From the NCBI GenBank assembly GCA_963702475.1, contig CAVPCT010000006.1:256001-320000 (forward strand): 64,000 bases of DNA, in the 5' to 3' direction. The notes under the pieces were generated by a model. It searched no databases. It saw only the letters and a list, made by a program, of their open reading frames with translations, and was not told where the DNA came from. Source of the DNA: an uncultured Thermoleophilia bacterium. Its GTDB lineage: Bacteria; Actinomycetota; Thermoleophilia; UBA2241. Shown here piece by piece: positions 12,614 through 60,450 of this stretch; the stretch's first letter is position 1, and each line of letters begins with the position of its first letter. The translations under genes and the position numbers were made by a program.

Positions 12614-12640
12614 GCTGGACCGTTCATCAGCCGGCGGCCG

Positions 12641-14887: not shown

Positions 14888-15598
14888 GTGAGCGGCGTGC
14901 TGCAAGCTACGGGCCGCGGCACGTCGGCGACGACCACACAGGGTCCCGCCGTCGCCGGTCCTCCCGTCGAAGACCCGCGGCCGAGCATGCCTCCCGCCGC
15001 CGCGCACCTGCTCGAGGCCGCCCAGCACGTGTTGCTCAGCAAGGGGTTCGGAGGCCTCACGCTGCGGGCCATCGCACAGGAGTCGGGCGAGAACTCGGCC
15101 ATGGTGCAGTACTACTTCGGCAACAAGGACGGCCTCGTCCGGGCGATGATCGACTCGGCGTTCCGCGACGACCAGCAGGACGCCGCCGCGGCCATGAACG
15201 CGGCCATGGGCGACGCCCGGTTGCCCGCGTTCGTGGACGCGCTCCGGACCATCGGGTCGTCGCGCTCGTTCCGTGTGTTCTTCGACATCCTGCCGTACGC
15301 CCTCCGCAACGAGACGCTGCGGGACCGCATGGCGCGGGTGTACGTCTGGTACCGGCGGATCAAGTGCGACTGGCTGAGCGGCGGGAGCGAGAGCGGCGAG
15401 CCCGCCGCCGCGGAGCGCGAGGCTCTGCAGGGCGTGGCCGAGCTCATGACGGCGGTGGTCGACGGGCTCGCCGTCCAGGAGGCGATCGACGACGACTTCG
15501 ACTCGAGCCGGGCCTACGCTGTGCTCGAGCTCATGCTGCAGCGCTCGCTGCCGGAGCTGATCGAGCGCGGTCTGCCCGAGGCTTCGTCCGCGGAGTGA
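14888..15598 (+). CDS. TetR/AcrR-family regulator
   Basis: LLEAAQHVLLSKGFGGLTLRAIAQESGENSAMVQYYFGNKDGL HTH; start uncertain. Confidence 0.9.
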   Translation: MSGVLQATGRGTSATTTQGPAVAGPPVEDPRPSMPPAAAHLLEAAQHVLLSKGFGGLTLRAIAQESGENSAMVQYYFGNKDGLVRAMIDSAFRDDQQDAAAAMNAAMGDARLPAFVDALRTIGSSRSFRVFFDILPYALRNETLRDRMARVYVWYRRIKCDWLSGGSESGEPAAAEREALQGVAELMTAVVDGLAVQEAIDDDFDSSRAYAVLELMLQRSLPELIERGLPEASSAE

Positions 15599-33599: not shown

Positions 33600-33755
33600 C
33601 AGTGAGCGGTGACGCTACGCCGCACCACTCGTTGACCCACCTGCGGCGGTCAGTGACCGGTGCACCTGGCGGCCCACCGGTCGTTAGCGCCGCTACGTCG
33701 GCTAATGAGCGGTGACGCTACGCCGCACCACTCGTTGACCCACCTGCGGCGGTCA
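33600..33755. repeat. BIME-like A-B-A cluster of REP-like units
   Basis: Identical 50-mers at 33603-33652 and 33706-33755 flank a unit related to the 33039 and 37643 copies. Confidence 0.8.
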
Positions 33756-35540
33756 ATCGCGGGCGAGGGCGGCGAGGGCGTCCAGCAGGACCGGGTCGCC
33801 GGCCAGGACCTGCGCCGCCGCGCCCTCGACGCGCGCCGCCATGCCCTCCGTGAAGTACTGGGCCGCGAGGAGCTTGCGCGCGTCGTCCTGGGCTGCTCGC
33901 AGCACGAGGTAGCCGCAGGCCACGTCGATGCTCATCTCGGTGAGCCGGCGGGCGTGGAAGTCACGGAAGCGACTGTCGCCGAGGGAGCGCACGCGTTCGA
34001 TGGACTCGGCCAGGCGCGCGCGGGCGTGCCGCACGCGCGCCAGGAGTTCGGGGGTGGCTGAAAGCTCCTCGGCGTCGTACTCGTCGAGCCTCCCGGCCAG
34101 CGTGCCGCCGAGGATGCCGCCGATGGCGGCCACCACCTGCAGCTGCGTCGTGCCCTCGTAGATGTTGGTGATGCGCGCGTCGCGGGCGTGGCGCTCCACG
34201 GAGAAGTCGCGCATGTAGCCGGATCCGCCGTGCACCTGCAGCGACTCGTAGGCCACGGTGTTGGCCATCTCCGTCGCCAGCGCCTTCGAAAGCGGCGTGA
34301 ACAGGGCCGCCAGGCGCGTGTACTTCTTGAGCTCGGCGCGCAGCGCCTTGACGTCGTCGTCCTCGGGGTGGCGGCCGCGAGCCGGGCGGCCGTCGGGGGC
34401 GGCCGGCGAAGCCTCACCGCCCTCGGCCGCCTTCTGGAGCTGCTCGATGCGGTGCTCGAGCACCTCCTTGGTGTCGACGATGAGCGCGGTCTCGTAGAGC
34501 AGCGCGCGCGACGCCTCGATGCTCACCTTCATGTCGGCGAGCATGCCCTTGACGGCGGTGAGCTCGCCGATGGGCGCGCCGAACTGCACGCGTTCGGCGG
34601 CGTACTTCGCCGCCGCCCGGTACGCCGCCTCGGCGATGCCCTGCGCCTGTGCGGCGATCGCGATGCGGGCGCCGTTCATGAGACTCATGACGTAGGTCGT
34701 GAGCCCGCGCCGGCGCTCACCGACGAGCAGCGCCGGCGCGTCGTCGAACTGGAGCTCACACGTCGGCGACCCGTGGATGCCGAGCTTGTCCTCAAGGCGG
34801 CGGATACGCATGTGCTCGTCGCGCTCGTAGAGGAACATGCTGAGGCCGCGCGCGTCGGTGGTGCCCTCTTCCGAGCGCGCCAGCACGAGGCTGATGGCCC
34901 CGCAGCCGTTGGTGATGAAGCGCTTCACGCCGTTGAGGCGCCAGGTACCGTCCGGCTGCTCAGTGGCCTTGAGCTGCACGTTCTGCAGGTCGCTGCCGGC
35001 CTCGGGCTCCGTGAGCGCCATGCTGCCGGTGACCTCGCCGCTGGCGAAGCGCGGCAGGTAGGCGGCCTTCATCTCGTCGTCGGCGAACTTGTTGACCGTC
35101 TCGCTGATGTCCTGGAGGCCGAAGATGTTCATGAGCGCGGGGTCGGCCCGGCTGACCATCTCGACGATCATCACGCTGACCGACACGGGGAAGTTGAGCC
35201 CGCCGTACTTGCGCGGCAGGGTGATGCCCATGAGGTCGGCCTGTTTGAGGCGCTCCAGACCCTCGGCGATGCCGGGCGCGTAGCACACCTCGCCCTGCAC
35301 GAGCTCACTGCCGGCCCGGTCGATGCCCTCTGCGCGCGGCTCGATGTACTCGCCGGCCAGGTCGCCGACGATGTCGAGGGTGCGCTCGTAGGAGTCCAGC
35401 GCGTCCTCGTAGTCACGCGGCGCGTAGGCGAAGTCGCGCGCCTGGGCGTAGCCGTCCTCACGCAGGCGCACCACGCGCGCCAGGTCGATGCGGCGCAGGG
35501 CGGCCTGCAGGTCCGGGTTGTCGCGGTAGAAGTTGCTCAT
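33753..35540 (-). CDS. Acyl-CoA dehydrogenase (long, ETF-linked)
   Basis: MALTEPEAGSD, LNGVKRFITNG, KLGIHGSPT, QVHGGSGY, IYEGTTQLQ. Confidence 0.95.
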   Translation of the reverse strand: MSNFYRDNPDLQAALRRIDLARVVRLREDGYAQARDFAYAPRDYEDALDSYERTLDIVGDLAGEYIEPRAEGIDRAGSELVQGEVCYAPGIAEGLERLKQADLMGITLPRKYGGLNFPVSVSVMIVEMVSRADPALMNIFGLQDISETVNKFADDEMKAAYLPRFASGEVTGSMALTEPEAGSDLQNVQLKATEQPDGTWRLNGVKRFITNGCGAISLVLARSEEGTTDARGLSMFLYERDEHMRIRRLEDKLGIHGSPTCELQFDDAPALLVGERRRGLTTYVMSLMNGARIAIAAQAQGIAEAAYRAAAKYAAERVQFGAPIGELTAVKGMLADMKVSIEASRALLYETALIVDTKEVLEHRIEQLQKAAEGGEASPAAPDGRPARGRHPEDDDVKALRAELKKYTRLAALFTPLSKALATEMANTVAYESLQVHGGSGYMRDFSVERHARDARITNIYEGTTQLQVVAAIGGILGGTLAGRLDEYDAEELSATPELLARVRHARARLAESIERVRSLGDSRFRDFHARRLTEMSIDVACGYLVLRAAQDDARKLLAAQYFTEGMAARVEGAAAQVLAGDPVLLDALAALARD

Positions 35541-36649
35541 GCCGCCCCTCCGTCGTGGGAGGCCACGCCCTTTGTCCGGTAGGCCTTGATCAGCAGGGGG
35601 ATGACCTTGTGGAGGTCGCCGACGATGCCGTAGTGGGCGACCGAGAAGATGGGCGCCAGCGGGTCGCTGTTGATGGCGAGGATGCGGGCGCTCTGGTCCA
35701 TGCCGGCGCGGTGCTGCACCGAGCCGCTGATGCCGCAGGCGATGTAGAGCTTGGGGCGGACGGTGGTGCCCGTCTGGCCGACCTGGTGGTCGTGATCGAT
35801 CCAGCCGGCGTCCACGGCGGCGCGGCTGGCACCGACGACGCCGCCGAGCGAGCGTGCGAGCTCTTCGACGAGGCCGAACCCCTCGCGCGAGCCGACGCCG
35901 ACGCCGCCCGACACGACGATGCGCGCGCCTTTGAGGTCCACGCGCTTCTCCTCGCTGACACGCCTTACCAGCTTGACCGCGAAGTCGGCGTCGGTGAGGA
36001 CGACGCGGTCGGCAGGCGCGACCGCAGCCGACGAGCGCTCGACCGGCACGCGGAGGATCTCGCCGTTGCGCGTTGCGTCCGCCTGCGGCATGACCATGAC
36101 CCCCTCGCGCACTGTGGCCATCTGCGGCCTGTGCTCGGGGCTCACGATGGTCGCGATGATGTTGCCGCCGAAGGCCGGGCGGATCTGGTACAGGATGCTC
36201 TCCCAGGTCTCGCCCTTGGCGGTGAAGTCGCCGATGCGCAGGTCGGTGCAGTCGGCCGTGAGGCCGGTGCGCAGGGCGCTGGCGACGCGCGGCGCGAGGT
36301 CACGACCTGTGGTGGTCGCGCCGTAGAGGACGATCTGCGGCTCGTACTGACGCACGAGCGTGGTCACGAGCCGCGTGTACGGAAGGGCCAGGTAGTCGCC
36401 GAGGTCCTCGTGGCCGGCGAGGTACACGGTGTCGGCGCCGCGGGCGACGACTTCGGCGGCGAGGCCGTTCACGGCCTCGCCGGACCCGGCCAGCACGGCG
36501 CCGACACTCGCGCCGAGCGACGCCGCGAGCTCGCGGGCGCGGCCGAGCAGCTCGAGGCTGACCTCGGCCGCTTCGCCGTCGTGCTGCTCGATGAACACCC
36601 AGACCTCGCCGGCGCCGTTCACGGGGGCGCCTCCCGTCCGGTCAGCCAA
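35537..36649 (-). CDS. etfA: Electron transfer flavoprotein alpha subunit
   Basis: GLTADCT, RPAFGGNI, GASRAAVDAGW, QVGQTG, GISGSVQH. Confidence 0.95.
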   Translation of the reverse strand: MADRTGGAPVNGAGEVWVFIEQHDGEAAEVSLELLGRARELAASLGASVGAVLAGSGEAVNGLAAEVVARGADTVYLAGHEDLGDYLALPYTRLVTTLVRQYEPQIVLYGATTTGRDLAPRVASALRTGLTADCTDLRIGDFTAKGETWESILYQIRPAFGGNIIATIVSPEHRPQMATVREGVMVMPQADATRNGEILRVPVERSSAAVAPADRVVLTDADFAVKLVRRVSEEKRVDLKGARIVVSGGVGVGSREGFGLVEELARSLGGVVGASRAAVDAGWIDHDHQVGQTGTTVRPKLYIACGISGSVQHRAGMDQSARILAINSDPLAPIFSVAHYGIVGDLHKVIPLLIKAYRTKGVASHDGGAA

Positions 36650-37568
36650 GGATGTGCTCCTCGATCAGCTGGTGCACGAGCTCGGCGATGCCGGCCTCGT
36701 CGGGCTCGACCATGCGCGCCTCGCTCTGCGCGAGCACGACGCTCTCGATCTCCTTCACGCGCGTGGGTGAGCCGCGCAGGCCCAGGGCCTCGCGGTCGGC
36801 CTCGAGCGCCTCGTGGTCCCACTGGACGACCCGGGCGCGACAGACCGGCTTGCCGTCGCGCCCGATCATGCAGACCTCGGCGTCGTCGCTCTCGGGGTCC
36901 AGGTAGCTGTCGTCGTACTCGGGCATGGCCTCGGCGGCGATGTCCTTGTACGTCATGACGAGCTTCACGCTGGGTGGGCGCGGGTCGTTGGCCTCGCCGG
37001 CTACCGTGAGGAGGCACGGCAGCGAGCTGGTGAGCGTCTCGAAGCCGCCCTCGATGGAGCGCGTCGCCGTGACGCTGCCGATGGCGTCGCCGTCGGGCGG
37101 GGTCACGGCCTCGATGCGGCTGACGCAGGTGATCTGGGGCACGCCAAGCTTCTCGGCGGTCTGCGGGCCGACCTGGGCGGTGTCGCCGTCGATGGCCTGG
37201 CGGCCGCACAGGATGACGTCGACGCCGCCGAGCTTGCGCACGGCGAGCGAGAGGGCGTAGCTGGTTGCGAGCGTGTCGGCGCCGGCGAAGGCGCGGTCGG
37301 TGAGCAGCACGACCTCGTCGGCGCCGCGGAACAGGGAGTCGCGCAGCACCTGCACGGCGGCCGGCGGCCCCATGGTGATCACGGTGACGCGGCCGCCGTG
37401 GCGGTCCTTGAGCTTGAGCGCCTCCTCGAGGGCGCTGAGGTCCTCGGGGTTGAACACCGTCGGCAGCGCCGCCCGGTTGATGGTGCCGTCCTCTTTCATG
37501 GCCTCGCCGGTCACGTTCTGCGTGTCCGGGACCTGTTTGACGAGGACGACGATACGAAGCTGAGCCAT
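36642..37568 (-). CDS. etfB: Electron transfer flavoprotein beta subunit
   Basis: KQVPDT, TMGPP, FAGADTLATS, GRQAIDGDTAQVGP, GLRGSPT. Confidence 0.95.
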   Translation of the reverse strand: MAQLRIVVLVKQVPDTQNVTGEAMKEDGTINRAALPTVFNPEDLSALEEALKLKDRHGGRVTVITMGPPAAVQVLRDSLFRGADEVVLLTDRAFAGADTLATSYALSLAVRKLGGVDVILCGRQAIDGDTAQVGPQTAEKLGVPQITCVSRIEAVTPPDGDAIGSVTATRSIEGGFETLTSSLPCLLTVAGEANDPRPPSVKLVMTYKDIAAEAMPEYDDSYLDPESDDAEVCMIGRDGKPVCRARVVQWDHEALEADREALGLRGSPTRVKEIESVVLAQSEARMVEPDEAGIAELVHQLIEEHILG

Positions 37569-39271: not shown

Positions 39272-39628
39272 TCAGTCCAGCGACTCCACGTGGTTCGAGG
39301 GCACCCAGCCGGTCAGGCCGGCGGCCGTGCGGCACAGCAGCCAGCCGCCGGCCTCATCGAGCACCTCGAGCCGTTCGCCGCGCGCGACAGTGAGTTCGGT
39401 GGCGTCGTAGTCGCGCAGGGCGATGGCCTCGGCCGGCCCGCTCGTCTGCAGGTATTCCTCCGGCACCCAGCCGGCGCGGCCGGCCTGGTCGGCGCCCCAC
39501 ACGTAGGAGGTCCACTGCTGGTCGTGACGACCCACGCACACGGCCTCACCCTCGCGAAAGCGCACGGGCTCGGGCGCGGAGGAGACGTACGACGCGACGA
39601 CGCGGACGGAGTGTGGCGGCTCGTTCAT
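39272..39628 (-). CDS. Tandem SH3-domain protein (paralog 1)
   Basis: GWVPEEYL; ALRDYDATELTVARGE..GWVP. Confidence 0.85.
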   Translation of the reverse strand: MNEPPHSVRVVASYVSSAPEPVRFREGEAVCVGRHDQQWTSYVWGADQAGRAGWVPEEYLQTSGPAEAIALRDYDATELTVARGERLEVLDEAGGWLLCRTAAGLTGWVPSNHVESLD

Positions 39629-39660
39629 TTCAGGAGGGAGGAGCGGGACGACCGCGGCGG

Positions 39661-40020
39661 TCAGCTCTCGACCGCCTCCAGGCAGGACGCCGGCACCCAG
39701 CCCTCGGCGCCGGCGGAGTTGCGACAGCGGATCCACACACCGATGCTCTCGAGGCCCTCCAGGAGCTCACCCTTCACCACCGTGAGCTGGGCCGCGTCGT
39801 AGTCACGCAGCGCCGTGGCCTCCTTGTCGGTGTCCATGTGGAGGAACTGCTCGGGGACCCACCCGGCGTGGCCGTCTTCGGCGGCGCACCACAGGAACTC
39901 CGGGTACTGCTGGTTGCGGTGCCCGACGACGATGGACTCGCCTTGGCGGATGCGGATGTTCTCTACGTGGTCGCGTGCCCTCGACGTGACGACGCGCACA
40001 GGCTGCGGGTAGGTGTCCAT
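39661..40020 (-). CDS. Tandem SH3-domain protein (paralog 2)
   Basis: GWVPEQFL; ALRDYDAAQLTVVKGE..GWVP. Confidence 0.85.
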   Translation of the reverse strand: MDTYPQPVRVVTSRARDHVENIRIRQGESIVVGHRNQQYPEFLWCAAEDGHAGWVPEQFLHMDTDKEATALRDYDAAQLTVVKGELLEGLESIGVWIRCRNSAGAEGWVPASCLEAVES

Positions 40021-47493: not shown

Positions 47494-48108
47494 GTGACCT
47501 CACGAGCCGGCGGCCGGCGCCCTCGGGTGGTCCTGAACGAAGGCACGCGCATCGTGCTTGCCGGCCTCGGCCTGTACGTCGTGATCGCCGTCGTGATCTG
47601 GCTGTTCCCGGCCCTGCGCTTCACGCCGGCCCGCCCCGCGTGGGCCGCGATCGCGGGCTGGGGGCTTCTCCTGGCGTCGCTCGCCGTGTGGCTCGTGGCG
47701 GCGCGAAGCATGCGCGCCGCGTACGCGGCCGGGCAGTTCCCGACGGCCGGGCTGTTCGCGTGGGTGCGACACCCCATCTACACAGCCCTCATCTTCGTGC
47801 AGTGCCCGGGCCTGATTGTCTGGCTGTGGGGCTGGCCGGCGCTGGTCCTGCCGTTCGTCGCGTACGGACTGTCCCGCTGGGCGGTGCGGCGCGAGGAATC
47901 GCGCCTGTACGATCACTTCGGGCCGTCGTACGAGGCTTACCAGCGCACCGTCCCGGCGCTCTTCCCGCGCCTGCGCCGCCGGCCGCCGCCGGGTGTCGGC
48001 GGCGAACTCGTCAATCGCAGAGTGAAGACGCGCAAGGCCGCGGCGGCCCGCTCCGCCGCCCGCCGGGGCGGCAAGGACCGCTCGGACTCGCACCTCCGCG
48101 GGCTCTGA
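47494..48108 (+). CDS. PEMT/isoprenylcysteine methyltransferase-family membrane protein
   Basis: GLFAWVRHPIY, EESRL..HFG..YEAY..VP; start uncertain. Confidence 0.85.
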   Translation: MTSRAGGRRPRVVLNEGTRIVLAGLGLYVVIAVVIWLFPALRFTPARPAWAAIAGWGLLLASLAVWLVAARSMRAAYAAGQFPTAGLFAWVRHPIYTALIFVQCPGLIVWLWGWPALVLPFVAYGLSRWAVRREESRLYDHFGPSYEAYQRTVPALFPRLRRRPPPGVGGELVNRRVKTRKAAAARSAARRGGKDRSDSHLRGL

Positions 48109-48139: not shown

Positions 48140-48907
48140 TCACCCGCCGAGCGGGCGCAGGTGCGCGCTCGCGACCCGCCGCTTGCAGCGGTCGCACAGG
48201 TCGTCGCTGCCGTCGATCCCGTGGGTCTGGGAAGCCGCCATGGCCGCGGCGTGCTCGCGCGTGGTGATCGGCCTGCCGCAGTGCTCGCAGGGCAAGAGCT
48301 CGAACGTGCGCCCCCAGATCGTGCGTGTGGTGGGTGTGTCCCCCATGCCGATGCACGCGGTGGGGCAGACTTCGTGACAGGATCCGCAGCCCACGCAGTT
48401 GAGGGCCGTCTCCTGCCCGTACGGCGGGCCGATGTACTTGTGGTCGCCGCGGCCGATCGCTGCGAGCGCGCTGTAGCCCAGGGCCGCGCACACGCGCACG
48501 CAGAGCTCGCAGAGGATGCAGTCCGGGAGAGGGGCGCCGGTCAGGGGCGCGAAGCGTGGCTCCGCGGCTCCGAGTCGGGCGGCCAGCCGCTGAAGGACGG
48601 GGGCCCGTGGCGCGCGACGCAGCAGGAGCTGCACGTTCATGAGCCGGTGCTTGCGGATGGCCGGCGAGTCGGTGACCACATCGAGGCCGTCGGACGCAGG
48701 GTAGTCGCACGAGGTGGTCAGCTGCGTCCAGTCGCGGCCCGGCCGCCGGATCTCGACCAGGCAGAGCCGGCACGACGCGACGGCCGGCACCCCCTCGTTG
48801 TGGCAGAGCGCCGGCACGTCGCGCCCGGCACGGCGAGCGGCGTCGAGGACGCTCGCGTCGGCGGGCGCCGTCACCTGTTCGCCGTCGATGATGAGCGATA
48901 CGTCCAC
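48140..48907 (-). CDS. Fe-S subunit, NuoG/HydA N-terminal-like, without catalytic domain
   Basis: [2Fe-2S] LCH..SCRLC..SC; CILCELCVRVC and CVGCGSCHEVCP; C-terminal CEHC..CDRC. Confidence 0.88.
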   Translation of the reverse strand: MDVSLIIDGEQVTAPADASVLDAARRAGRDVPALCHNEGVPAVASCRLCLVEIRRPGRDWTQLTTSCDYPASDGLDVVTDSPAIRKHRLMNVQLLLRRAPRAPVLQRLAARLGAAEPRFAPLTGAPLPDCILCELCVRVCAALGYSALAAIGRGDHKYIGPPYGQETALNCVGCGSCHEVCPTACIGMGDTPTTRTIWGRTFELLPCEHCGRPITTREHAAAMAASQTHGIDGSDDLCDRCKRRVASAHLRPLGG

Positions 48908-48916
48908 GGCGCCCTC

Positions 48917-50770
48917 CTACCGCACCAGCACGGCGTCGTACTTGCACACGTCTTTGCAGATGCCGCACTTGATGCAGAGCTCCTGGTCGATCGCGTGCGG
49001 CTGCTTCTTCTGGCCGGTGATCGCTTCCTGCGGGCAGCGGCGTGCGCACAGCATGCAGCCGGTGCACGACTCCGCGTCGATACTGAATGCGATGAGCGCC
49101 TTGCACACACCCGCGGGGCAGCGCTTCTCGTCCACGTGCGCGAGGTACTCGTCGCGGAAGTAGTGCAGCGTCGACAGCACCGGATTGACGGCGCTCGTGC
49201 CCAGGGCGCACAGCGAGGTGGCCTCCACCGTGTCTGCGAGCTCCTCTACCAGGGCGAGCGTCTCGCGCGTGCCGCGGCCTTCGGCGATCTCGCCAAGCAG
49301 CTCGTGCAGGCACTCGAGACCGTCGCGGCACGAGGTACAGTTGCCGCACGACTCCGAGGCCAGGAAGCGGAGGAAGTACCTGGCGACGTCCACCATGCAC
49401 GTGTCTTCGTCCATGACGATCATGCCGCCCGACCCCATCATGGAGCCCTCGGCCACGAGCGTGTCGAAGTCCACGGGCACGTCCAGCTTCTCCGCAGGCA
49501 GGCAGCCTCCGGACGGCCCGCCGGTCTGGACTGCCTTGAACGCCTTTCCCCCCGGGATGCCGCCGCCGGCGTCGAAGATGATCTCGCGCAGGCTCATGCC
49601 CATCGGGACCTCGACCAGGCCGGTGTTGTTCACCTTGCCGACCAGGGAGAAGATCTTCGTCCCCGGAGAGCCGTCTGTGCCGATCGCACGAAACCACCCG
49701 GCGCCGTTGAGCACGATGTGCGGCACGTTGGCCCAGGTCTCCACGTTGTTGACGTTGGTCGGCCGACCCCACAGCCCGTGTTCTGAGAGATGGATGAGCC
49801 GCCGGTGCGGCACGCCGCGGCGGCCCTCCAGCGACGCCATCATGGCGCTCGCCTCGCCGCACACGAACGCGCCGCCGCCGCGGCTCACGCGCACGTTGAG
49901 GCACAGACCGCTCCCGAGGATGTCGTCGCCGAGCAGGCCGAGCTCGCGCGCCTGACCGATGGCCACGTCGAGGTGCTCCACGGCCAGTGGGTACTCCTGA
50001 CGCACGTACACCACACCCTCTCGGGCCCCGATGGCGAAGGCCCCGATGGTCATGCCCTCGAGCACGCTGTGAGGGTTCCCCTCGAGGATCGAGCGATCCA
50101 TGAAGGCGCCCGGATCGCCCTCGTCGGCGTTGCACACCACGTACTTGAGGTCTCCCTCCGCCCTGCGGCAGGCCTCCCACTTGCGACCGGCGGGGAAGCC
50201 CGCTCCGCCCCTGCCCCGCAAGCCCGAGCGCTTGACCTCGTCCAGGACGGCCTCCGGGCCCAACTCCAATGCCTTGGCGAGCGCCGAATAGCCGCCGACG
50301 GCGATGTAGTCGTCGATCGAGGTGGGGTCGCGCCGGCCGGCGTCGCGCAAGAGGAGCCGCTCCTGGTAGCGGTAGAAGGGGATCTGGTCCTCGCGGGTGT
50401 GTCGCAGGCCGGTCGCCGGGTCCTCGTACAGCAGACGCTCGAGCACTTCGCCGTTCAGCAGGGCCTTCTCGACGAGCTCGGGCACGTCCTCCACGCGCAC
50501 GCGCTGGTAGAGGATACCCTTGGGGTAGAGGAGCACGAGCGGCCCGCGCTCACAGAACCCGTGGCAGCCGGTCGCCCGCATCGTGACCAGGCAGTCCGAG
50601 CCGAGTGCCTCGAGTTCGTCGCACAGGGCCCGGAACACCTTCATGGCGCCTTGCGCCCGGCAGCCCGTCCCGCCGCAGACGGCGACGACCGTAGCGGCGG
50701 CGTCCCGGCCCGCGACCAGCGCGTCGCGGTGGCTGCCCAGAGAGCCGGGGTCGGCGAACCGCGCGCTCAC
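48917..50770 (-). CDS. HydB/NuoF-like FMN/NAD-binding subunit (long form)
   Basis: N-terminal CGGTGC..GCHGFC; LRGRGGAGFP; CNADEGDPGAFMDR; GGPSGG; ESCGNCTSC; C-terminal 2x[4Fe-4S]. Confidence 0.93.
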   Translation of the reverse strand: MSARFADPGSLGSHRDALVAGRDAAATVVAVCGGTGCRAQGAMKVFRALCDELEALGSDCLVTMRATGCHGFCERGPLVLLYPKGILYQRVRVEDVPELVEKALLNGEVLERLLYEDPATGLRHTREDQIPFYRYQERLLLRDAGRRDPTSIDDYIAVGGYSALAKALELGPEAVLDEVKRSGLRGRGGAGFPAGRKWEACRRAEGDLKYVVCNADEGDPGAFMDRSILEGNPHSVLEGMTIGAFAIGAREGVVYVRQEYPLAVEHLDVAIGQARELGLLGDDILGSGLCLNVRVSRGGGAFVCGEASAMMASLEGRRGVPHRRLIHLSEHGLWGRPTNVNNVETWANVPHIVLNGAGWFRAIGTDGSPGTKIFSLVGKVNNTGLVEVPMGMSLREIIFDAGGGIPGGKAFKAVQTGGPSGGCLPAEKLDVPVDFDTLVAEGSMMGSGGMIVMDEDTCMVDVARYFLRFLASESCGNCTSCRDGLECLHELLGEIAEGRGTRETLALVEELADTVEATSLCALGTSAVNPVLSTLHYFRDEYLAHVDEKRCPAGVCKALIAFSIDAESCTGCMLCARRCPQEAITGQKKQPHAIDQELCIKCGICKDVCKYDAVLVR

Positions 50771-51282
50771 GACGGCTCCTCGGCAGCCAGGAGCTCGCCG
50801 ACCAGCCGGGAGAGACGCTCACTGGTCATGTGGCCGTGGTAGTCGTCGTCGAGGAGGACGAGCGGGCCGAGGGCGCAGGCGCCCACGCAGCTCACCTCCT
50901 CGACGGTCAGCGATGAGTCGGGTGCGGTGCCGCCGGCCGCCACACCGGTGTCGCGCTCCAGCTGCTCTAGCAGCCGCGGCGCACCTCGCACGTGGCAGGC
51001 GGTGCCCATGCAGACGGTACAGGTGTGCCTGCCGCGGGGCTCGGTGCGGAAGCCGTGGTAGAAGGTCGCCACCCCGTAGACCTGTGTCTCCGACAGCACG
51101 ACGTGGGACGCCGTCTCACGCATGGCCGCCTCCGGCAGGTAGCTGAACTCGGCCTGCAGGTCGTGCAGGATGTTCACGAGGTCGCCCGGGTCACGCCGGG
51201 GGTAGCGGGCAAGGACCGACGCGATCCGGCTCTGGTCGGTCGCCGCGTCGCTCACCGTCTCGTCCTTCCGGCGGTCCATCAT
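50767..51282 (-). CDS. HydC/NuoE-like [2Fe-2S] subunit
   Basis: VYGVATFY, VCMGTACHVRG, CVGACALGP. Confidence 0.93.
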   Translation of the reverse strand: MMDRRKDETVSDAATDQSRIASVLARYPRRDPGDLVNILHDLQAEFSYLPEAAMRETASHVVLSETQVYGVATFYHGFRTEPRGRHTCTVCMGTACHVRGAPRLLEQLERDTGVAAGGTAPDSSLTVEEVSCVGACALGPLVLLDDDYHGHMTSERLSRLVGELLAAEEPS

Positions 51283-51291
51283 GCCGTCCTC

Positions 51292-51564
51292 TCAGCCGCC
51301 GGCGATCATCGGGAAGACGGAGATCTCGTCGTCGTCCCCGAGCGGCGTGTCCAGCCCCTGCAGGTGCCGCACGTTGCGGCCGTTGACGAGGATGATGATC
51401 TCGGCGTGCAGAGCCTCCCCGTCGAACACGGTGCGCCGGAACAGCCGGCCGTAGCGCTCCGCGAGCTGCGTGAGCAGCTCGCGGAGATCGCTCGGTCGGC
51501 CGTCGATCCGGCGCTCCTGCTCCCTCGTGAGGGAGCGGATGGTGGCGAAGTACTTGACCGTCAT
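51292..51564 (-). CDS. MoaD/ThiS-family sulfur carrier
   Basis: VKYFATIR, ILVNGRN, C-terminal FPMIAGG; ATGA overlap with the aor stop. Confidence 0.92.
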   Translation of the reverse strand: MTVKYFATIRSLTREQERRIDGRPSDLRELLTQLAERYGRLFRRTVFDGEALHAEIIILVNGRNVRHLQGLDTPLGDDDEISVFPMIAGG

Positions 51565-53369
51565 GCCTTGAGCGAGAGCTCCTTCAGCTTCGCCTTGCTC
51601 GGCACGCCGTCCTCGTCCCAGCCCCGCTTCGCGTAGTAGTCGGGCACCATGTGGCCGAGCTTGCTCACGTGGCCCTTGGATGCGCCGCTCTTGATGGGCT
51701 CTTCGAGCAGCCGCCTGGGCAGCGTGTCGTCGTCCTTGGTGAACCCGGCGGCGATGTTCCAGAGCTTCTCCTGGTTCCAGATCCGATCGCCGATGAGCAG
51801 GAACTCCTGGAGCGTGTAGTCCTCGCCGGTGAGCGCGGACAGCATCTCCGTGAGCTCCTCGCCACCGATGCCGAAGGTCGAGAACAGGCACGCGCCGGTC
51901 GCGTCGAGCGCGGCCGTGAGGTTCTGGAAGGCGATGCCGAGGCCAGCCTTCTCGTCGGGGCTGTGCGGGTCTGAGCTGCCGCCGCTCTGCAGGATCTCGT
52001 GCGAGATGGTGTAGCCGCGCACGTGGCAGCCGCCGCGGTTGCTGGTCGCGTAGTTGAGGCCGATGCCCTGGATGGCGCGGGCGTCGTAGGCCGGCATCTC
52101 CTGCTTCTTGGCCGTCATGGAGTACTCGGGGTGGCCGTAGCCGTCCGCCAGGCGGTGGGAGCCCTGGGCGATCTTGGCGCCGAAGCCCTCGCCCTCGCCC
52201 GCCTTGCGCGTCATCTCGACGATCGCGGCGGCGTTGCCGAAGCTCAGGTCCACGCCGTCGGTGTCGGCGGTCGTGATGATGCCGCGCTGGAACAGCTCCA
52301 TCGCGCAGGCGATCGTGGAGCCCGTGGAGATGGTGTCCATGCCGTACTCGTTGCACAGGTAGTTGGCCTTGGTGATGGCGTCCAGGTCGTCGACGCCGCA
52401 GTCGGCGCCGTAGGCCCAGGCGGTCTCGTACTCGGGGCCTTCGCCGATGCCCTCGTAGCCGGGGGCGTCGACCTTGGTGACGCGGCCGCAGGAGATGATG
52501 CAGCTGAAGCAGCCCTTCTTGCGGATCAGCTGCTTGGCGGCCAGGGACTCGCCGCCGGTCTTGTCGGCCGTCGGGAAGTACGCGTCCTGCCAGTTGCGAG
52601 TGGGCAGGCCGCCGGACTGGTTGAGGATGTTGACGAGCACGTCCGTTCCGTAGGCCGGCAGGCCGGTGCCGCCGACGGGGTGGTCGAAGATCAGCTGGCG
52701 CGCCTTGAGCACGGCCGCCTTGAAGCCCTCGGGGTCGGCCACCTGGACGGCGCCGGTGCCGAGTACGGCGACCGCCTTGAGGTTCTTGGAGCCCATCACC
52801 GCGCCGACGCCGGTGCGTCCCGCGGCGCGGTGCATGTCGTTCATGATGTTGGCGACCAGCGCCAGGTGTTCGCCGGCCGGGCCGATGCAGGCGACCTTGG
52901 CGTCGTCGTCGGTCTCGGCCCTGACCAGGTCGGTGGTGTCGGGCACGGTGTGGCCCCAAAGGGCCGCCGCGTCGCGGATCTCGACCTGGTCGTCCTTGAT
53001 CCACAGGTACACGGGCTTGGCGGCCTTACCCTCGATGATGACGGCGTCGTAGCCGGCGTACTTGACCTCCGGGCCGAAGTTGCCGCCCGAGTTGGAGGCG
53101 GCCAGCGAGTCGTTGAGGGCGCCCTTGGTGACGACGTTGTAGCGCCCGGCGGACGGCGCGAAGGTGCCGGTCAGCGGCCCGGTCGCGAAGACGAGCTTGT
53201 TCTTGGGCCCGAGGGCGTCCGCCTTGGGGTCGACCTCGGCGCGGATGATGGCGCCGCCCAGGCCGCGCGCGCCGATGAAGTCACGGGCGAGCTTGCGGTC
53301 GAGGGCCTCGCGGGTGACGCTGCCGCTGGTGAGGTCGATGCGGAGGATCGTTCCGGTCCAGCCGTACAT
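51561..53369 (-). CDS. aor: Aldehyde:ferredoxin oxidoreductase family (tungstopterin) large subunit
   Basis: MYGWTGTILRIDL, GPLTG, IGPAGE, RAAGRTGVGAVMGSKNLKA, CFSCIISC, GPEYET, NRGGCH, YYAKRGWD. Confidence 0.95.
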   Translation of the reverse strand: MYGWTGTILRIDLTSGSVTREALDRKLARDFIGARGLGGAIIRAEVDPKADALGPKNKLVFATGPLTGTFAPSAGRYNVVTKGALNDSLAASNSGGNFGPEVKYAGYDAVIIEGKAAKPVYLWIKDDQVEIRDAAALWGHTVPDTTDLVRAETDDDAKVACIGPAGEHLALVANIMNDMHRAAGRTGVGAVMGSKNLKAVAVLGTGAVQVADPEGFKAAVLKARQLIFDHPVGGTGLPAYGTDVLVNILNQSGGLPTRNWQDAYFPTADKTGGESLAAKQLIRKKGCFSCIISCGRVTKVDAPGYEGIGEGPEYETAWAYGADCGVDDLDAITKANYLCNEYGMDTISTGSTIACAMELFQRGIITTADTDGVDLSFGNAAAIVEMTRKAGEGEGFGAKIAQGSHRLADGYGHPEYSMTAKKQEMPAYDARAIQGIGLNYATSNRGGCHVRGYTISHEILQSGGSSDPHSPDEKAGLGIAFQNLTAALDATGACLFSTFGIGGEELTEMLSALTGEDYTLQEFLLIGDRIWNQEKLWNIAAGFTKDDDTLPRRLLEEPIKSGASKGHVSKLGHMVPDYYAKRGWDEDGVPSKAKLKELSLKA

Positions 53370-53370
53370 C

Positions 53371-53853
53371 TCAGCTCACCTCCTGGAAGGCATCCTTGAA
53401 CTTCGCCGCGTAGGCCTTCTTGCGGGCCTTCACCTGGGCGTCGTCGTCCAGGTACTCCAGGGCCTTGGTGGGGCAGAAGGCGACGCACTCGGGCGCGCCC
53501 TGGCAGTTGTCGCACTTGAAGATGCTGCTGGAGGCCGCGTCGTAGCGGGCGTTGCCGAACGGGCAGGCGATCACGCACATCTTGCAGCGGATGCACTTGG
53601 CCTCGTCGTAGTCGATGAGGCCGGCGATCGTGTAGCTGGGGTGCATGGCTCCGGTGGGGCAGACGGTGACGCAGGCTGCGTCGTCGCACTGCTGGCACAT
53701 CATCGGCACCGAGATGCCCTCGCGCTCCCAGGTGAACGCCTGGACGCGCGAGGCTCCCGGACGGAACCTGCCCTCGTGCTCGAACGAGCACGCGAGCTCG
53801 CAGTTGCGGCACCCGGTGCACTTGTCCGGGTGGATCATCAGGACCTTGGCCAT
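53371..53853 (-). CDS. 4x[4Fe-4S] DmsB-like small subunit of AOR
   Basis: CTGCRNCELAC, CQQCDDAACVTVCP, CIRCKMCVIACP, KCDNC..CVAFCP; AGGAGG RBS. Confidence 0.93.
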   Translation of the reverse strand: MAKVLMIHPDKCTGCRNCELACSFEHEGRFRPGASRVQAFTWEREGISVPMMCQQCDDAACVTVCPTGAMHPSYTIAGLIDYDEAKCIRCKMCVIACPFGNARYDAASSSIFKCDNCQGAPECVAFCPTKALEYLDDDAQVKARKKAYAAKFKDAFQEVS

Positions 53854-53947
53854 GGCATCCTCCTGCTGGGAGCACTGTTGCCGCCGGCGCGGCCGGCCGG
53901 GAGCGCGCCGCTCTGCGTGTGCGGCGGACCGTCGATCCAGAGGATGC

Positions 53948-54014
53948 TGCACACGCCCCTGGGCGGCGAGTCGACGGGCGACCACTCTTGGCCGTGGCGG
54001 ATTGGGCGTGTGCA
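53948..54014. promoter_or_regulatory. Inverted repeat pair upstream of the AOR operon (candidate regulator site)
   Basis: TGCACACGCCC (53948-53958) and GGGCGTGTGCA (54004-54014), 45 nt apart. Confidence 0.5.
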
Positions 54015-54089
54015 CAGGCGCCGCTCTCGCGGGCTGCCGCGAGGGGCGGCCTCGCCCGACGCGTGCCGAGGCCGCACCGGGGGGTGCGG

Positions 54090-55574
54090 CTAGCTGGAAG
54101 GCTCGCCGAGCAGCTCGGCCGCGTGCAGACCGAGGCGCACGTCGACGACCGCGTCCAGGTCGCCGAGGTCGACACCGAGCAGCTGCTCGACGTGGGCGAG
54201 GCGTTTCTGCAGCGTGTTGCGGTGGATGTGGAGCGCGTCGGCCGTCTCCTGGACGGCGAGCCGGCGCTCGAAGTAGGTACGCAAGGTCGCGTACAGGCTG
54301 GCGCGGTGCTGCGCGTCGTAGTCCAGGACCGGGCCGAAGGTCCGCGCGACGATGCCGGTCAGCTCCTGCTCGTCGAGCGCGTCGAGGAGGCGGAAGTGGC
54401 CGCTCAACTCCTCGAAGACGCCGCCTTCGCCGGGGTTGTGCGCGAGGCGCGCGGCGATGCAGGCTGCCTTGGCCTGCTGCAGCCCGCGGGCGGCGCCGAT
54501 GACCCCACCGAGCGGCGCCGAGCAGCCTGCAACGACGCCGCCGTCGCTGACCGGCGCGGCGGCATCGCGTAGACCGGCGAGCAGGCCTCGCGCCGTGCCG
54601 GGCCCGGCGTCGGGCACGGCGGTGAGGATGACCGCCCTGTGGTCCACCGACGCCGTCAGATAGGGGACGCGGCGCGCGCTCAGCGCAGCGTCCAGCGCGT
54701 GCAGCAGGTCAGCCTCGCGACCGGCGGCCTTGTCCGTCCGCATGGTCCTGGCTGCCGGGTCGAGCGGCTCGACGACGGCCAGACGGAGCACGGCATCGTC
54801 GGCGAAGCCTTGGGCCTGCAGCCGCACCCGCAGCTCGTCGGGCGTGCCGTCGCCGTTGAGCACGTCGTGGAGCAGTCCGCGGCGCAACCTGCGCCGCATG
54901 CGCAGCTCGTCCTTGCCGCGCAGCAGGTCCAGGGCCACGAGCTGCTGCATGAAGACGAGCGAGGCGCCGGCGAACTCCGACGGCCGGTGCCGGCCGATCC
55001 TGGCCGCGAGGACCCGCTCGACCCTGCCCATCACGAGCACGTCGCGGAAGGACACGCGCTCGCCGGTGCTCGTGATGGATGCCGCGTCGGCCTGGCGGTC
55101 CCGCTCCTCGTAGGCGGCCCACAGGCTCCGCTCGAGTTCCGGTGCGGCGCCGGCGCTGCGCGAGGCGCACACCACGTGGCCCTGCGGGTCGAAGAGGACG
55201 AGGGGGACGTCGAGGATCGAGGCGACCCGCTCGACCAGTTCGGCCACGTCCTTCTGCTGGACGACGAGCTCGAGAAGCTGGATCTGCAGCGCGGCGGTGC
55301 GCCGCAGCGTCTGCATGTCGCCGGCGGCCGTAGCCGGCCCCCCATCCTCGTCGTGCTCCTGACGCCTGAGCGCCTCCTCGAGTTCCTCGGTGTGCAGGCG
55401 CACCTGGTCCTGCAGCATGATCGTCGTCTGAAAGAGGCCGAAGTCCGAGCCCTGGACCTTCGTCCCGGCCTCCGCACGGTCCATGAGTGCGTCGACCACC
55501 TTGTTGAGCCGCACGATCTCGGCCTTCAGGGCTTGAACGTCGTCGCCGGGGGCGTTGTGCGAGAGGTCAGTCAT
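54090..55574 (-). CDS. PucR/CdaR-family regulator with N-terminal FIST-partner coiled coil
   Basis: C-terminal LYATLRTYF..TADALHIHRNTLQKRL HTH; N-terminal LKAEIVRLNKVVDALMDRAE..FGLFQTTIMLQDQVR. Confidence 0.88.
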   Translation of the reverse strand: MTDLSHNAPGDDVQALKAEIVRLNKVVDALMDRAEAGTKVQGSDFGLFQTTIMLQDQVRLHTEELEEALRRQEHDEDGGPATAAGDMQTLRRTAALQIQLLELVVQQKDVAELVERVASILDVPLVLFDPQGHVVCASRSAGAAPELERSLWAAYEERDRQADAASITSTGERVSFRDVLVMGRVERVLAARIGRHRPSEFAGASLVFMQQLVALDLLRGKDELRMRRRLRRGLLHDVLNGDGTPDELRVRLQAQGFADDAVLRLAVVEPLDPAARTMRTDKAAGREADLLHALDAALSARRVPYLTASVDHRAVILTAVPDAGPGTARGLLAGLRDAAAPVSDGGVVAGCSAPLGGVIGAARGLQQAKAACIAARLAHNPGEGGVFEELSGHFRLLDALDEQELTGIVARTFGPVLDYDAQHRASLYATLRTYFERRLAVQETADALHIHRNTLQKRLAHVEQLLGVDLGDLDAVVDVRLGLHAAELLGEPSS

Positions 55575-56709
55575 CGTCCCGTCCGCCGCCGAAGGCGATC
55601 GCCGTGAGTGTCTGGTTCACGTGGACCCCGCAGAACTGCTCCCCGTAGGTGTTGAAGCCGATCGCGTTGTTCCGCCGCAGCACCTTGCTCACGGCGTCGC
55701 GCTGGCCGCTCTGGTCGATCTCGAGCTTGCGGAGGATGCAGTCGAACGTCAGCACGAGCTGGGGAGGCCCGACCTGGGCGCGAGCGCGGGCCAGGGCCGC
55801 CTCGAGGTTGTCGACCAGGTCGACGCCTCTGGCGATGCGCAGGACCACGCCACGGTCGATGGCGCAGTAGAGCTTGAGCCCGTCCGGCTCGACGCGCTGG
55901 ATGGAGCGCACGTACTCGCTCCCGTCTACGAGGACGACCATCGGCGAGGCGGCGAAGTGCGCCGGGCCCAGCTCGGCGGGGTCGATGCCGAGCAGGCGCG
56001 CGTATTCCTCGGCCGCCGGCAGCCCGTTGATCTCACGCACCAGGCGCCTGGCCGGGTCCGCCTCCGTCACCACGAGGCGCTCATCGGTGGCCGTGAAGTG
56101 CTGGGTCTTGAACTCGGCGATGGGCAGCGGCGTGGCGGCGAGCACGAGGACGGCCGCGTCGCGCGAGAAGCGGCCGTCGCAGTAGACGTAGGTCCCCTCG
56201 AAGTCCAGCGAGTCCCCCGCGGAGCCGCCGACGAGTGGGATGTCGCCGAGCCCCTCCTGCAGCGCGTGGGCGACCTGCTCCTCGTGCCCGAACAGGCCGT
56301 CGACGAGGAGGAAGGCGAAGGTGTTCCACGTGCCGTCCCCGACGAGGTCGCCCAGCCGGCGGCGCAGGTCCTGGGCGACGGCGACGCCGTCCGCGCTGCG
56401 GAAGGAGTCGAGCCCCTCGAGGCGCCCGATGACCGCGGTGCAGACACGCGCTGCGAAGCTCACGCCGGCGAGGCTGTGCTCCCGGCAGCCGGCCGGGCCG
56501 ATCTCGCCGGCGGTGGTGCAGCCGACCACGGGCACGCCGGCGAAGCGGACGGCCATCTCCGCCGCGAGCGCGTCGCGGTCGTAGCGGCTCGAGCAGAAGA
56601 ACAGCACCAGCGACGCGTCGGGCTGTGTGATGCTGTCGTGCAGCTCAGCCGCAGCCTCGCTGGGGTCGTGTGCGCATGACTGTGCGATGCGGATGGTCTC
56701 GTCGGCCAC
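55567..56709 (-). CDS. nosP: FIST-domain sensor, NosP-like
   Basis: LVLFFCSSRYD, GCTTAGEI, LLVDGL, GGSAGD, EINGLPAAEEYAR, YVRSIQ, YCAIDRG, DCILR, GFNTYGEQ..HVNQT. Confidence 0.88.
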   Translation of the reverse strand: MADETIRIAQSCAHDPSEAAAELHDSITQPDASLVLFFCSSRYDRDALAAEMAVRFAGVPVVGCTTAGEIGPAGCREHSLAGVSFAARVCTAVIGRLEGLDSFRSADGVAVAQDLRRRLGDLVGDGTWNTFAFLLVDGLFGHEEQVAHALQEGLGDIPLVGGSAGDSLDFEGTYVYCDGRFSRDAAVLVLAATPLPIAEFKTQHFTATDERLVVTEADPARRLVREINGLPAAEEYARLLGIDPAELGPAHFAASPMVVLVDGSEYVRSIQRVEPDGLKLYCAIDRGVVLRIARGVDLVDNLEAALARARAQVGPPQLVLTFDCILRKLEIDQSGQRDAVSKVLRRNNAIGFNTYGEQFCGVHVNQTLTAIAFGGGRDDD

Positions 56710-56839
56710 AAGCAGCCCCTGCTCGCCGTCGGTCCGGGGCTCTGCCCCGTGCGTAGTCAAGGGCCCATGATACTGCGGAGCCCTCCCTGCGGTGCTGCCT
56801 CGCGGCGTGCCGCTGAGTATGGGGTACAGTGGGGACCAG

Positions 56840-59776: not shown

Positions 59777-60450
59777 TCAGAGCCTGCGCAGCTCCGCTAT
59801 GGCCTCTGCGATGATCGCCTGCTGCCGCTCGATCTCGTCGAGCAACTCCTCGGGCGTGCGCATGTCCTCCTCGATGATCCGGTGCGGGTTGACCGCCTTG
59901 AGGTCGTAGTTGCTCGTCTCGATGGCGTCGCGAGTCACCGTCCAACGCCGCTCGGAGTCCGGCCGTCCCACTGTCCCGGCCGCGCGACGATCGCCGACGA
60001 GTTCGAAGAACTCCTCCATGCGCACCAGCGTGAACGGCGTCTTCTTGCCGACCTTTAGGTCGCTCCGGTCGTGGTACCAGATGCGCTCGGTGGGCCGGCC
60101 CTTGTTGAATAACAGGAGGTTGGCCTTCACGCAGGCGCCGACCTGGCTGAACACGCCGGGCGGCACGCTGACGATGCACCGCAGGTCGCAGTCGTCGAGG
60201 AGCTTGCGCTTGGTCTGGACGAAGGCGGTCTCGTTGGTGCGGAGCAGGACGCCCTCGTCGATGACGAGGCCGCGGCGGCCGCCGGTGAGCGTGTTGCCGT
60301 GCCACAGGTGCGGCGCGTCGATGCCGTGCAGTACCACGTTGGCGAGCGCGATGGGGTAGTTGGCGTTGTCCTTCTCGCGGCCGTAGAGGGTGCGATCCTG
60401 CAGCGTGACGAGCTGGTCGGCGCAGGTGATCTTGCCGTTGCCGGCCCCTG
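59777..60450 (-). pseudogene. hsdM: Type I R-M methyltransferase (hsdM) fragments
   Basis: LYGREK..ALANVVLHG..GNTL, then VIDEGVLL..IVSVPPGVF..NYDLKAVNP; FxDPAxGT and NPPF motifs are missing. Confidence 0.78.

Follow-up and report, generated by a model that had tools for sequence, protein, structure and literature searches.

We analyzed a 64,000-nucleotide (nt) stretch of DNA from an uncultured Thermoleophilia bacterium (contig CAVPCT010000006.1, positions 256,001 to 320,000), which we call the window. It contains a cluster of eight genes for a NosP-like FIST sensor, a hybrid PucR-type transcription regulator, and a WorABCSL-type tungsten oxidoreductase (WOR). We consider it likely that the cluster comprises two units, in which the FIST-PucR pair activates the wor genes as part of an aldehyde-oxidation regulon. 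The eight genes and their two neighbors are as follows.

55567 to 56709, minus strand: stand-alone FIST_N+FIST_C sensor (NosP-like), 380 amino acids (aa), GTG start
54090 to 55574, minus strand: hybrid PucR-type transcription regulator, 494 aa
53371 to 53853, minus strand: worS, small subunit with four [4Fe-4S] motifs, 160 aa
51561 to 53369, minus strand: worL, tungstopterin aldehyde oxidoreductase large subunit, 602 aa
51292 to 51564, minus strand: worX, ThiS/MoaD-like protein, 90 aa
50767 to 51282, minus strand: worC, NuoE/HydC-like [2Fe-2S] subunit, 171 aa
48917 to 50770, minus strand: worB, NuoF/HydB-like FMN/NAD subunit, 617 aa
48140 to 48907, minus strand: worA, truncated HydA-N-like subunit, 255 aa
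57226 to 59184, plus strand: typA, flank of the cluster (Pfam, NCBIfam)
47494 to 48108, plus strand: ICMT-like methyltransferase, the other flank (Pfam, NCBIfam)

Start and stop are intact in all eight genes of the cluster, as judged by a gene caller that uses third-position G+C and by the translations. An original prediction, made from the DNA letters of the window, had proposed eight co-oriented genes at these coordinates, and the gene calls, the translations and the checked junctions bore this out. Its domain labels also match the Pfam and NCBIfam content of the proteins. The G+C content of the window is about 70%, and raw lists of open reading frames (ORFs) are therefore crowded with spurious frames. 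The end of the FIST gene and the beginning of the regulator gene share 8 base pairs (bp), with the sequence ATGACTGA, and a gap of 236 bp (53854 to 54089) separates the regulator from worS. The six wor genes follow one another at spacings of 1, -4, 9, -4, and 9 bp, where a negative value is an overlap. The cluster is bounded, because both flanking genes lie on the opposite strand. It would form two transcription units, the FIST-regulator pair, whose genes would be translationally coupled, and a worS-worL-worX-worC-worB-worA operon.

The predicted tungsten enzyme

The catalytic subunit WorL matched the Pfam domains AFOR_N (7.2e-79) and AFOR_C (1.2e-143), and its best match among solved structures was 9mqx_D (5.6e-227), with residues 1 to 600 aligned to residues 1 to 595. 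WorS has 16 cysteines, at positions 12, 15, 18, 22; 53, 56, 61, 65; 87, 90, 93, 97; and 114, 117, 123, 127, which form four [4Fe-4S] motifs. It is a poly-ferredoxin according to Pfam, and its top solved-structure match was 9mqx_E (2e-47), followed by 8c0z_C. WorC carries a 2Fe-2S_thioredx domain (5e-44); its solved-structure matches are C subunits of Bfu enzymes, with 9mqx_C (1.3e-30) at rank 7. WorB contains Complex1_51K, SLBB, and NADH_4Fe-4S domains, preceded by an N-terminal 2Fe-2S_thioredx domain and followed by C-terminal Fer4 domains (two [4Fe-4S]). It matched the B subunit of NiFe-Bfu (7t2r_B, 794 bits) and then 9mqx_B (786 bits). WorA has Fer2_4 and Fer4 domains, and the Pfam scan shows no H-cluster or catalytic C-terminal domain. 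Its best solved-structure match was 9mqx_A (6.6e-48; residues 3 to 248 against 5 to 240). The C-terminal region of WorA has a putative zinc finger (CxxC...CxxC) and a terminal helix region, and both CxxC pairs align with 9mqx_A. A C-terminal zinc finger and helix are described as a WorA-specific trait (PMC12318220). WorX matched Pfam ThiS (4.5e-18) and the NCBIfam MoaD family TIGR01687 with 76 bits (cut-off, 49.5). WorX is described as ThiS-like and is thought to serve pterin processing rather than being an enzyme subunit (PMC13328260).

The entry 9MQX is the cryo-electron microscopy model of WorABCSL from Acetomicrobium mobile (AmWOR1), an oxygen-sensitive enzyme handled under strict anaerobiosis, whose aldehyde oxidation requires NAD and ferredoxin jointly (PMC12318220). 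Such joint dependence of aldehyde oxidation with tungsten is known, according to the same source, only for AmWOR1 and for ElWOR1 of Eubacterium limosum. A 2026 classification assigns the WorABCSL architecture to Class IV, counts 102 such enzymes, and defines a type-1 gene order, WorSLCBA, sometimes with WorX between SL and CBA (PMC13328260). The window has this type-1 order, with WorX in that position. The assignment of the six genes to a Class IV, type-1-operon tungsten oxidoreductase, an enzyme kind already known, is thus well founded by homology. The original prediction of an electron-bifurcating-type tungsten aldehyde oxidoreductase agrees with this WorABCSL (9MQX) architecture at the level of homology. 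By analogy with the A. mobile and E. limosum enzymes, WorL would oxidize aldehydes, and the electrons would pass through the poly-[4Fe-4S] WorS and WorA to the flavin/Fe-S core of WorBC, where NAD+ and ferredoxin would be reduced together.

All five subunits of AmWOR1 and ElWOR1 are present in the window with the same domain make-up, and E. limosum likewise has the type-1 SLCBA order. However, the window host is a Thermoleophilia-type, high-GC actinobacterium from soil or peat rather than a gut or thermophilic anaerobe, and regulation in the window would be exerted by the FIST/PucR pair. A word search of the classification paper (PMC13328260) turned up no regulator. WorL and WorS are also homologous to subunits of AorABC from Aromatoleum aromaticum, a Class III WOR (PDB 8C0Z), but the window has a BfuABC-type module where AorABC has a flavin adenine dinucleotide (FAD) subunit.

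The FIST sensor and its partner regulator

The sensor matched Pfam FIST (2.9e-45) and FIST_C (3.3e-26). It scored 427 bits over its full length on the NCBIfam NosP equivalog model (NF041558), which has a cut-off of 450; it is therefore a close relative and is not named NosP by that model. In an alignment of 24 Thermoleophilia and eight proteobacterial FIST homologs, C64, C324, and H363 do not vary, and 31 of the 32 retain H204. A sequence search found no related solved structure. Binding of heme and nitric oxide (NO) is reported for NosP proteins (PMC12570481, PMC8846402).

These properties bear on an alternative that is close to the original prediction, namely that the FIST protein is a heme-based sensor of NO or oxygen (or of labile heme), so that the labile tungsten/Fe-S enzyme is made only when this is safe. 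The full-length match to the NosP model favors it, as do the His and Cys residues common to the proteobacterial homologs, the published binding of heme and response to NO by NosP, and the oxygen sensitivity of WorABCSL. The score is nevertheless below the equivalog cut-off, and a census review describes FIST ligand binding and signal propagation as little known (PMC8846402).

The regulator gene overlaps the FIST gene, and its product bears an N-terminal module shared with known FIST partners, yet it is a PucR-type transcription factor. It contains GGDEF_2 (PF17853) at residues 241 to 371 (3.7e-08) and HTH_30 (PF13556) at residues 427 to 485 (9.1e-18). The PucR N-terminal domain PF07905 was absent in Pfam even at E<=10, and there was no HisKA, HATPase, or REC core. 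A protein search returned 165 regulator homologs, which are from Thermoleophilia wherever the source names the organism. The first 85 or so residues are the best-conserved stretch of this family. Paralogs at 14 loci in the same kind of metagenome-assembled genome (MAG) match the regulator profile only from about residue 81 on. Three of them (at L028, L030, and L034) were scanned, and all three have the canonical PF07905-GGDEF_2-HTH_30 architecture; none of the 14 loci has a FIST match. The canonical paralog in L028 to L041 is about 563 aa long (for example, L030 9605-11293). Judged by its predicted domains, the regulator is a domain swap, in which the PucR sensor domain has been replaced by the following module.

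55323 to 55541, minus strand: N-terminal module of about 70 residues (regulator residues ~12 to 84), proposed FIST-coupling element

The module weakly matches positions 8 to 64 of the NCBIfam model for NahK/ErcS', the kinase that partners NosP (E=8.5e-4). It matches no Pfam model, the sole hit (E=1.1) being a chance level. We built a profile from residues 12 to 129 of the window protein and 19 orthologs and searched 1.84 billion representative proteins; 860 of these matched at E<=1e-3, and 209 of them also at E<=1e-10. Nearly all of the 150 matches listed align over profile positions ~1 to 73 only, at the N terminus of the protein. We scanned 45 of these 150 with Pfam, namely, four with an internal module and 41 longer ones. 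All 45 are signaling proteins: 18 histidine kinases, 22 with GGDEF and/or EAL, and 5 with PAS only. The four with an internal module are all fusions of the form FIST_N-FIST_C-module-output. None of the 45 has a helix-turn-helix (HTH) output, and among the 150 listed only two full-length orthologs of the regulator (P0098 and P0119) are known to have one.

As an independent check, a search of plasmids with the FIST protein of the window returned 224 records. We opened eight from different genera, picked from a spread listing and not at random; 54 Pantoea records, which are partial matches within chemoreceptor genes, were not among them. In all eight loci, the gene directly after FIST starts with the module (E 2.6e-26 to 9.2e-5), and there were no other module matches among the 1,123 six-frame ORFs of these loci. 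Because every gene after FIST in these loci and no other ORF carried it, the module is a hallmark of FIST partners. For a published partner kinase that binds NosP, the authors report "no recognized sensory domain" (PMC12570481).

The regulator shares the C-terminal HTH_30 and the central GGDEF_2 with PucR, CdaR, AdeR, and PmfR, and like members of the PucR/CdaR family it adjoins a catabolic operon that is presumably under its control. It differs from that family in having the FIST-partner module in place of PF07905. With the NahK/ErcS hybrid kinases it shares only this putative docking module. The known NosP-NahK(ErcS')/PedS1 and NosP-kinase-cyclic di-GMP systems resemble the window in having a stand-alone FIST gene that precedes and overlaps its partner, and in the shared module. 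However, the partner in the window is a one-component DNA-binding protein of the PucR type and not a kinase or cyclic di-GMP enzyme. The host is an actinobacterium, and the output would be direct transcription of a metabolic operon. Our literature search, with subscription papers and supplements outside its scope, found nothing relevant that links NosP/FIST with PucR, and a search for links among DUF779, aldehyde dehydrogenase (ALDH), and FIST gave only irrelevant results. What appears to be new is that a NosP-type sensor would act through a one-component transcription factor, with a defined putative operator, on interchangeable aldehyde-oxidizing systems.

Gene order and a conserved element in related loci

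We searched contigs from one genome per species with the regulator profile and obtained 47 loci, 27 of them orthologous, and the orthologs were all from Thermoleophilia-like MAGs. In 26 of 26 loci with sequence on that side, FIST lies directly 5' of the regulator; L022 starts within the regulator. Downstream DNA is available in 26 orthologous loci, since L017 ends within the regulator gene. The next gene is worS(-worL) in 15 of these and an ALDH gene in 10, and it is unidentifiable in L022. The ALDH loci include six that also have DUF779. They also include L007 and L025, contigs from a single MAG, in which the ALDH gene is followed by a complete wor operon. In the other eight, an orthologous aldehyde oxidoreductase (AOR) is absent from the fetched flank. 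On the NCBI model for the ExaC acetaldehyde dehydrogenase (cut-off, 900), two of three tested ALDHs scored 894 to 895 bits and the third scored 620.

Fifteen loci overall have the Class IV set. In L014 (7589-8851) and L021 (11154-12437), an AorC-like FAD/NAD flavoprotein, with 8c0z_E (AorC of Aromatoleum) as its best solved relative, replaces worC-worB-worA. Because this flavoprotein follows worS-worL-worX, the two loci encode Class III WORs. Under one and the same regulator, a Class III enzyme can thus stand in for a Class IV enzyme. The original prediction expected the nosP-like gene, the regulator, and aor to stay together in relatives. The FIST-regulator pair does stand next to worS in 15 of 26 loci, but aor is unlinked from the pair in the ALDH-type relatives. 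Since aor is replaced there by another aldehyde oxidizer, the link is to aldehydes.

Three further observations concern these loci. In L022 (880-920), the 3' half of the regulator, the operator, and the worS leader are followed by unrelated DNA before the worS ribosome-binding site. This locus, whose bin is labeled Alphaproteobacteria, is probably an assembly chimera, and we counted it as uninformative. A few kilobases 5' of FIST, ALDH loci encode on the opposite strand a molybdopterin enzyme that resembles formate dehydrogenase and has a NuoG-type N terminus (L006 778-3507, minus strand, apparently as two ORFs; L005 2-211; L027 2630-2914). L012 and L017, from the same MAG (CAVPXV01), apparently represent two different copies of the FIST-regulator pair, whose regulators share 59% and 71% identity with that of the window; the second copy is broken by a contig end.

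The gap between the regulator and worS contains a conserved element, with the following parts in the window.

53940 to 54016, minus strand: conserved putative operator/promoter inside the 236-bp gap
54010 to 54015, minus strand: GTGCAC, operator part
54003 to 54009 and 53978 to 53984, minus strand: half-sites, consensus GCGACCA...TGGTCGC, inverted repeat
53966 to 53973, minus strand: CGACTCG box, operator part
53941 to 53946, minus strand: CATCCT, a weak -10-like element

The shared architecture spans about 80 nt: TGTGCACGCGaCCA-N13-AAGaGTGGTCnC-N4-CGAcTCGa-N~18-CATCcT. It was found in all 25 aligned intergenic regions between regulator and target (23 loci, the second copy of L025, and the window), and the rest of these regions could not be aligned across the set. 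Counted by locus, the window and 25 of the 26 loci have the element 5' of worS or ALDH. An nhmmer search of the window and the 47 loci (883,418 nt, both strands) gave 28 sites. Each lies between the regulator and its next gene, worS or ALDH, except for the second copies in L007 and L025, which lie between DUF779 and worS. There were no other sites below E=1e-3 in this DNA, barring reverse-strand images of the same palindromes. We consider three observations informative: there are no other sites, the element stands before two unrelated kinds of operon, and it is duplicated where both operons occur. The original prediction had tied a nosP-like gene and a hybrid regulator to the aor operon, and the conserved gene order and the conserved element in the gap uphold this. 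The predicted regulatory link between the pair and the operon is therefore well supported.

In the window, the palindrome is centered about 55 to 60 nt upstream of the CATCCT hexamer. A sigma-70 consensus scan of the gap revealed no -35/-10 promoter, and no terminator was seen behind the regulator. The lack of a consensus promoter, together with the layout of the element, suggests an activator-dependent promoter in the gap, and the element would be the binding site of the regulator. Rfam had no match in the gap or in the whole window, and shuffled sequences fold just as well as the worS leader RNA (z = -0.18). Therefore, we do not propose a riboswitch or an attenuator.

The FIST-regulator pair probably has a promoter of its own.

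56767 to 56772, minus strand: TATCAT, -10-like, probable promoter of the pair, 58 to 63 nt upstream of the FIST start

The motif [ACG][CGT]TATCAT is kept at a comparable position 5' of FIST in the window and in 17 of 17 inspected loci. In one clade (L009, L018, L020, L025, and L026), an operator-like half-site, GTGTGCACGGGACCAC, lies about 20 to 45 nt 5' of the FIST start, just 3' of the conserved TATCAT, which suggests autoregulation. The corresponding region of the window (56710 to 56766) has no clear operator half-site. Weak matches to the operator profile (E 0.03 to 10) also occur just 5' of the canonical paralog in nine loci (in L030, at 9538-9581). Their recurrence at the same place may indicate a related binding site.

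A quick maximum-likelihood tree of 18 regulators was rooted on three paralogs; L004, L007, L011, L014, L017, L019, L020, L022, L023, and L027 were left out as partial, frameshifted, or duplicate. Five ALDH-type loci are basal, with unresolved basal forks. All wor-type loci, including the one with ALDH plus wor and the one of Class III, form one derived clade (SH-aLRT 97). In the simplest history, the sensor-regulator-operator unit would first have served an NAD-type (ExaC-like) ALDH and later gained the wor operon, with its own operator copy.

Elsewhere in the window there is a second ALDH gene (13251-14786, minus strand), which we rejected as a member of the regulon: it has no FIST-type operator, and it adjoins a divergent TetR regulator gene (14987-15598, plus strand). 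Downstream of it (11042-13090, minus strand), proteins of 512 and 149 aa show a strong coding signal but match nothing in Pfam. At 33753-37568 (minus strand), EtfB- and EtfA-like genes are followed directly by a gene for an acyl-CoA dehydrogenase whose C terminus carries a long extension, and this set could be a second flavin-based electron-bifurcating system of the Bcd/Etf type in the region. Two adjacent small proteins of SH3-type domains (118 and 119 aa) are encoded at 39272-40020 (minus strand). A 186-aa ORF at 59777-60337 (minus strand) matches the N-6 DNA methylase family only at its C-terminal part (175 to 302 of 311 positions) and is possibly a gene remnant.

Predicted regulon and signal

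We suggest that the FIST protein docks on the N-terminal module of the regulator and sets the activity of the regulator according to its ligand state. The regulator would bind the imperfect palindrome GTGCAC-GCGACCA-N18-TGGTCGC in the gap, and this binding would activate, rather than repress, the wor operon. The same pair and operator would, in relatives, drive an NAD-type, ExaC-like ALDH, often with DUF779, a Class III (NAD-linked) WOR, or two such systems together. Because the target gene varies among aldehyde oxidizers, the regulon would be aldehyde oxidation.

The targets also bear on the signal. NAD-type ALDHs are not known as an oxygen-labile family. Such a conventional enzyme is encoded next in 10 of the 26 loci, of which eight lack an orthologous AOR in the fetched flank, and the ALDH-type loci are basal on the regulator tree. 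These results speak against a gas or heme sensor that gates an oxygen- and NO-labile enzyme, which was the rationale of the original prediction.

The neighborhoods of FIST-partner pairs in Proteobacteria point the same way. Alcohol or aldehyde genes stand beside the FIST-kinase pair in seven of the eight sampled plasmid loci. They include genes for pyrroloquinoline quinone (PQQ) methanol/ethanol dehydrogenase, pedF, pqq genes, class III alcohol dehydrogenase, and formaldehyde genes, and two loci have the order ALDH-DUF779-FIST-NahK/ErcS kinase. The proteobacterial pairs thus share with the window an alcohol/aldehyde gene context, including an ExaC-type ALDH with DUF779. In Pseudomonas, according to a 2026 review (PMC12997753), nosP-nahK (ercS', pedS1) is located in the ped/exa alcohol-oxidation cluster, and deletion of pedS1 alters the alcohol-dependent activity of the pedF promoter. 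The original prediction saw in the window a metabolic role unlike the known NosP outputs; in light of this Pseudomonas work, that contrast was overstated. The review leaves open whether NO is sensed "rather than (or in addition to)" alcohols (PMC12997753).

Because the regulon is always an aldehyde oxidizer, and because of the proteobacterial plasmid and Pseudomonas contexts, we favor a signal linked to alcohol/aldehyde metabolism over an NO, oxygen, or heme gate, with a confidence close to even. By analogy, it is most likely tied to that metabolism as in the Pseudomonas ErcS'/PedS1 network. With conventional ALDHs as targets and with the PQQ-alcohol dehydrogenase and ALDH clusters around the proteobacterial pairs, we regard the heme-based NO/oxygen gate as unlikely, while still the foremost of the alternatives. 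We rank third the possibility that FIST reports a general metabolic or redox state, such as the NADH/ferredoxin balance, the supply of iron or heme, or the load of thiol-reactive electrophiles, to which the regulator would adjust the aldehyde-oxidizing capacity. In its favor, Cys64, Cys324, and His363 are invariant, as would fit a redox or electrophile sensor; the outputs to which the module couples FIST are very diverse; and heme itself has been proposed as a NosP/FIST ligand (PMC12997753, PMC8846402). However, the regulon here is narrowly one of aldehyde oxidation, and we consider such a general signal rather improbable.

Several points weigh against an alcohol/aldehyde-responsive pair that activates the wor operon. 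First, because of the near-equivalog NosP score, the conserved residues, and the published heme and NO binding, a gas or heme signal is fully possible for the FIST protein. The closest plasmid homolog of the FIST protein (57% identity), from Variovorax, is followed by a kinase and then a REC-PAS-GGDEF-EAL protein, and there were no aldehyde genes among the ORFs scanned at that locus. Second, we infer from gene neighborhoods and domain fusions only that the module is a FIST-docking element, and the tungsten use and electron bifurcation of the window enzyme are predicted by homology alone. Third, L020 has no element, and its regulator gene call is disrupted. The operator E-values for the training sites are circular, because the profile was built from those sites. 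Finally, the regulator tree shows only three to four changes of target type and therefore few independent associations. The typA gene adjoins in 17 of 27 loci and is kept with the wor-linked loci, so the gene order is in part shared ancestry.

The last point raises a further alternative, phylogenetic inertia, in which the pair controls something else, or itself, and merely adjoins wor in one actinobacterial lineage. It would account for the functionally unrelated typA beside the pair in 17 loci, for the origin of the orthologous loci in one group of Thermoleophilia-like MAGs, and for the operator-like half-sites near the pair's own promoter in one clade. However, the downstream gene switches among three non-homologous aldehyde-oxidizing systems while the operator/promoter stays constant, the element is present twice in L007/L025, once per operon, and it is found nowhere else in 883 kb. 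We therefore consider inertia very improbable, and we retain the FIST-PucR pair as the predicted activator of the wor operon.

With this cluster, soil/peat Actinomycetota join the hosts of Class IV bifurcating tungsten oxidoreductases, which are rare. A concrete candidate for the interface between sensor and partner is the module. The pair, with one sensor, one DNA-binding partner, and one operator, may offer a genetically simple handle on what FIST/NosP proteins sense and on how they signal; Proteobacteria use multi-step phosphorelays where the window pair has a single regulator. The presence of FIST-partner pairs beside alcohol/aldehyde oxidation genes in two phyla suggests that the NO-centered view of NosP is incomplete. 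A broader and more speculative proposal, which we offer tentatively, is that NosP-family FIST proteins across phyla are primarily sensors for alcohol/aldehyde oxidation, not dedicated NO/biofilm sensors, and that the module is their universal docking adaptor. If this is true, one sensor would be pluggable into kinases, cyclic di-GMP enzymes, or, first here, a PucR-type factor, and that factor would have carried the regulon from an ExaC-like dehydrogenase to tungsten enzymes.

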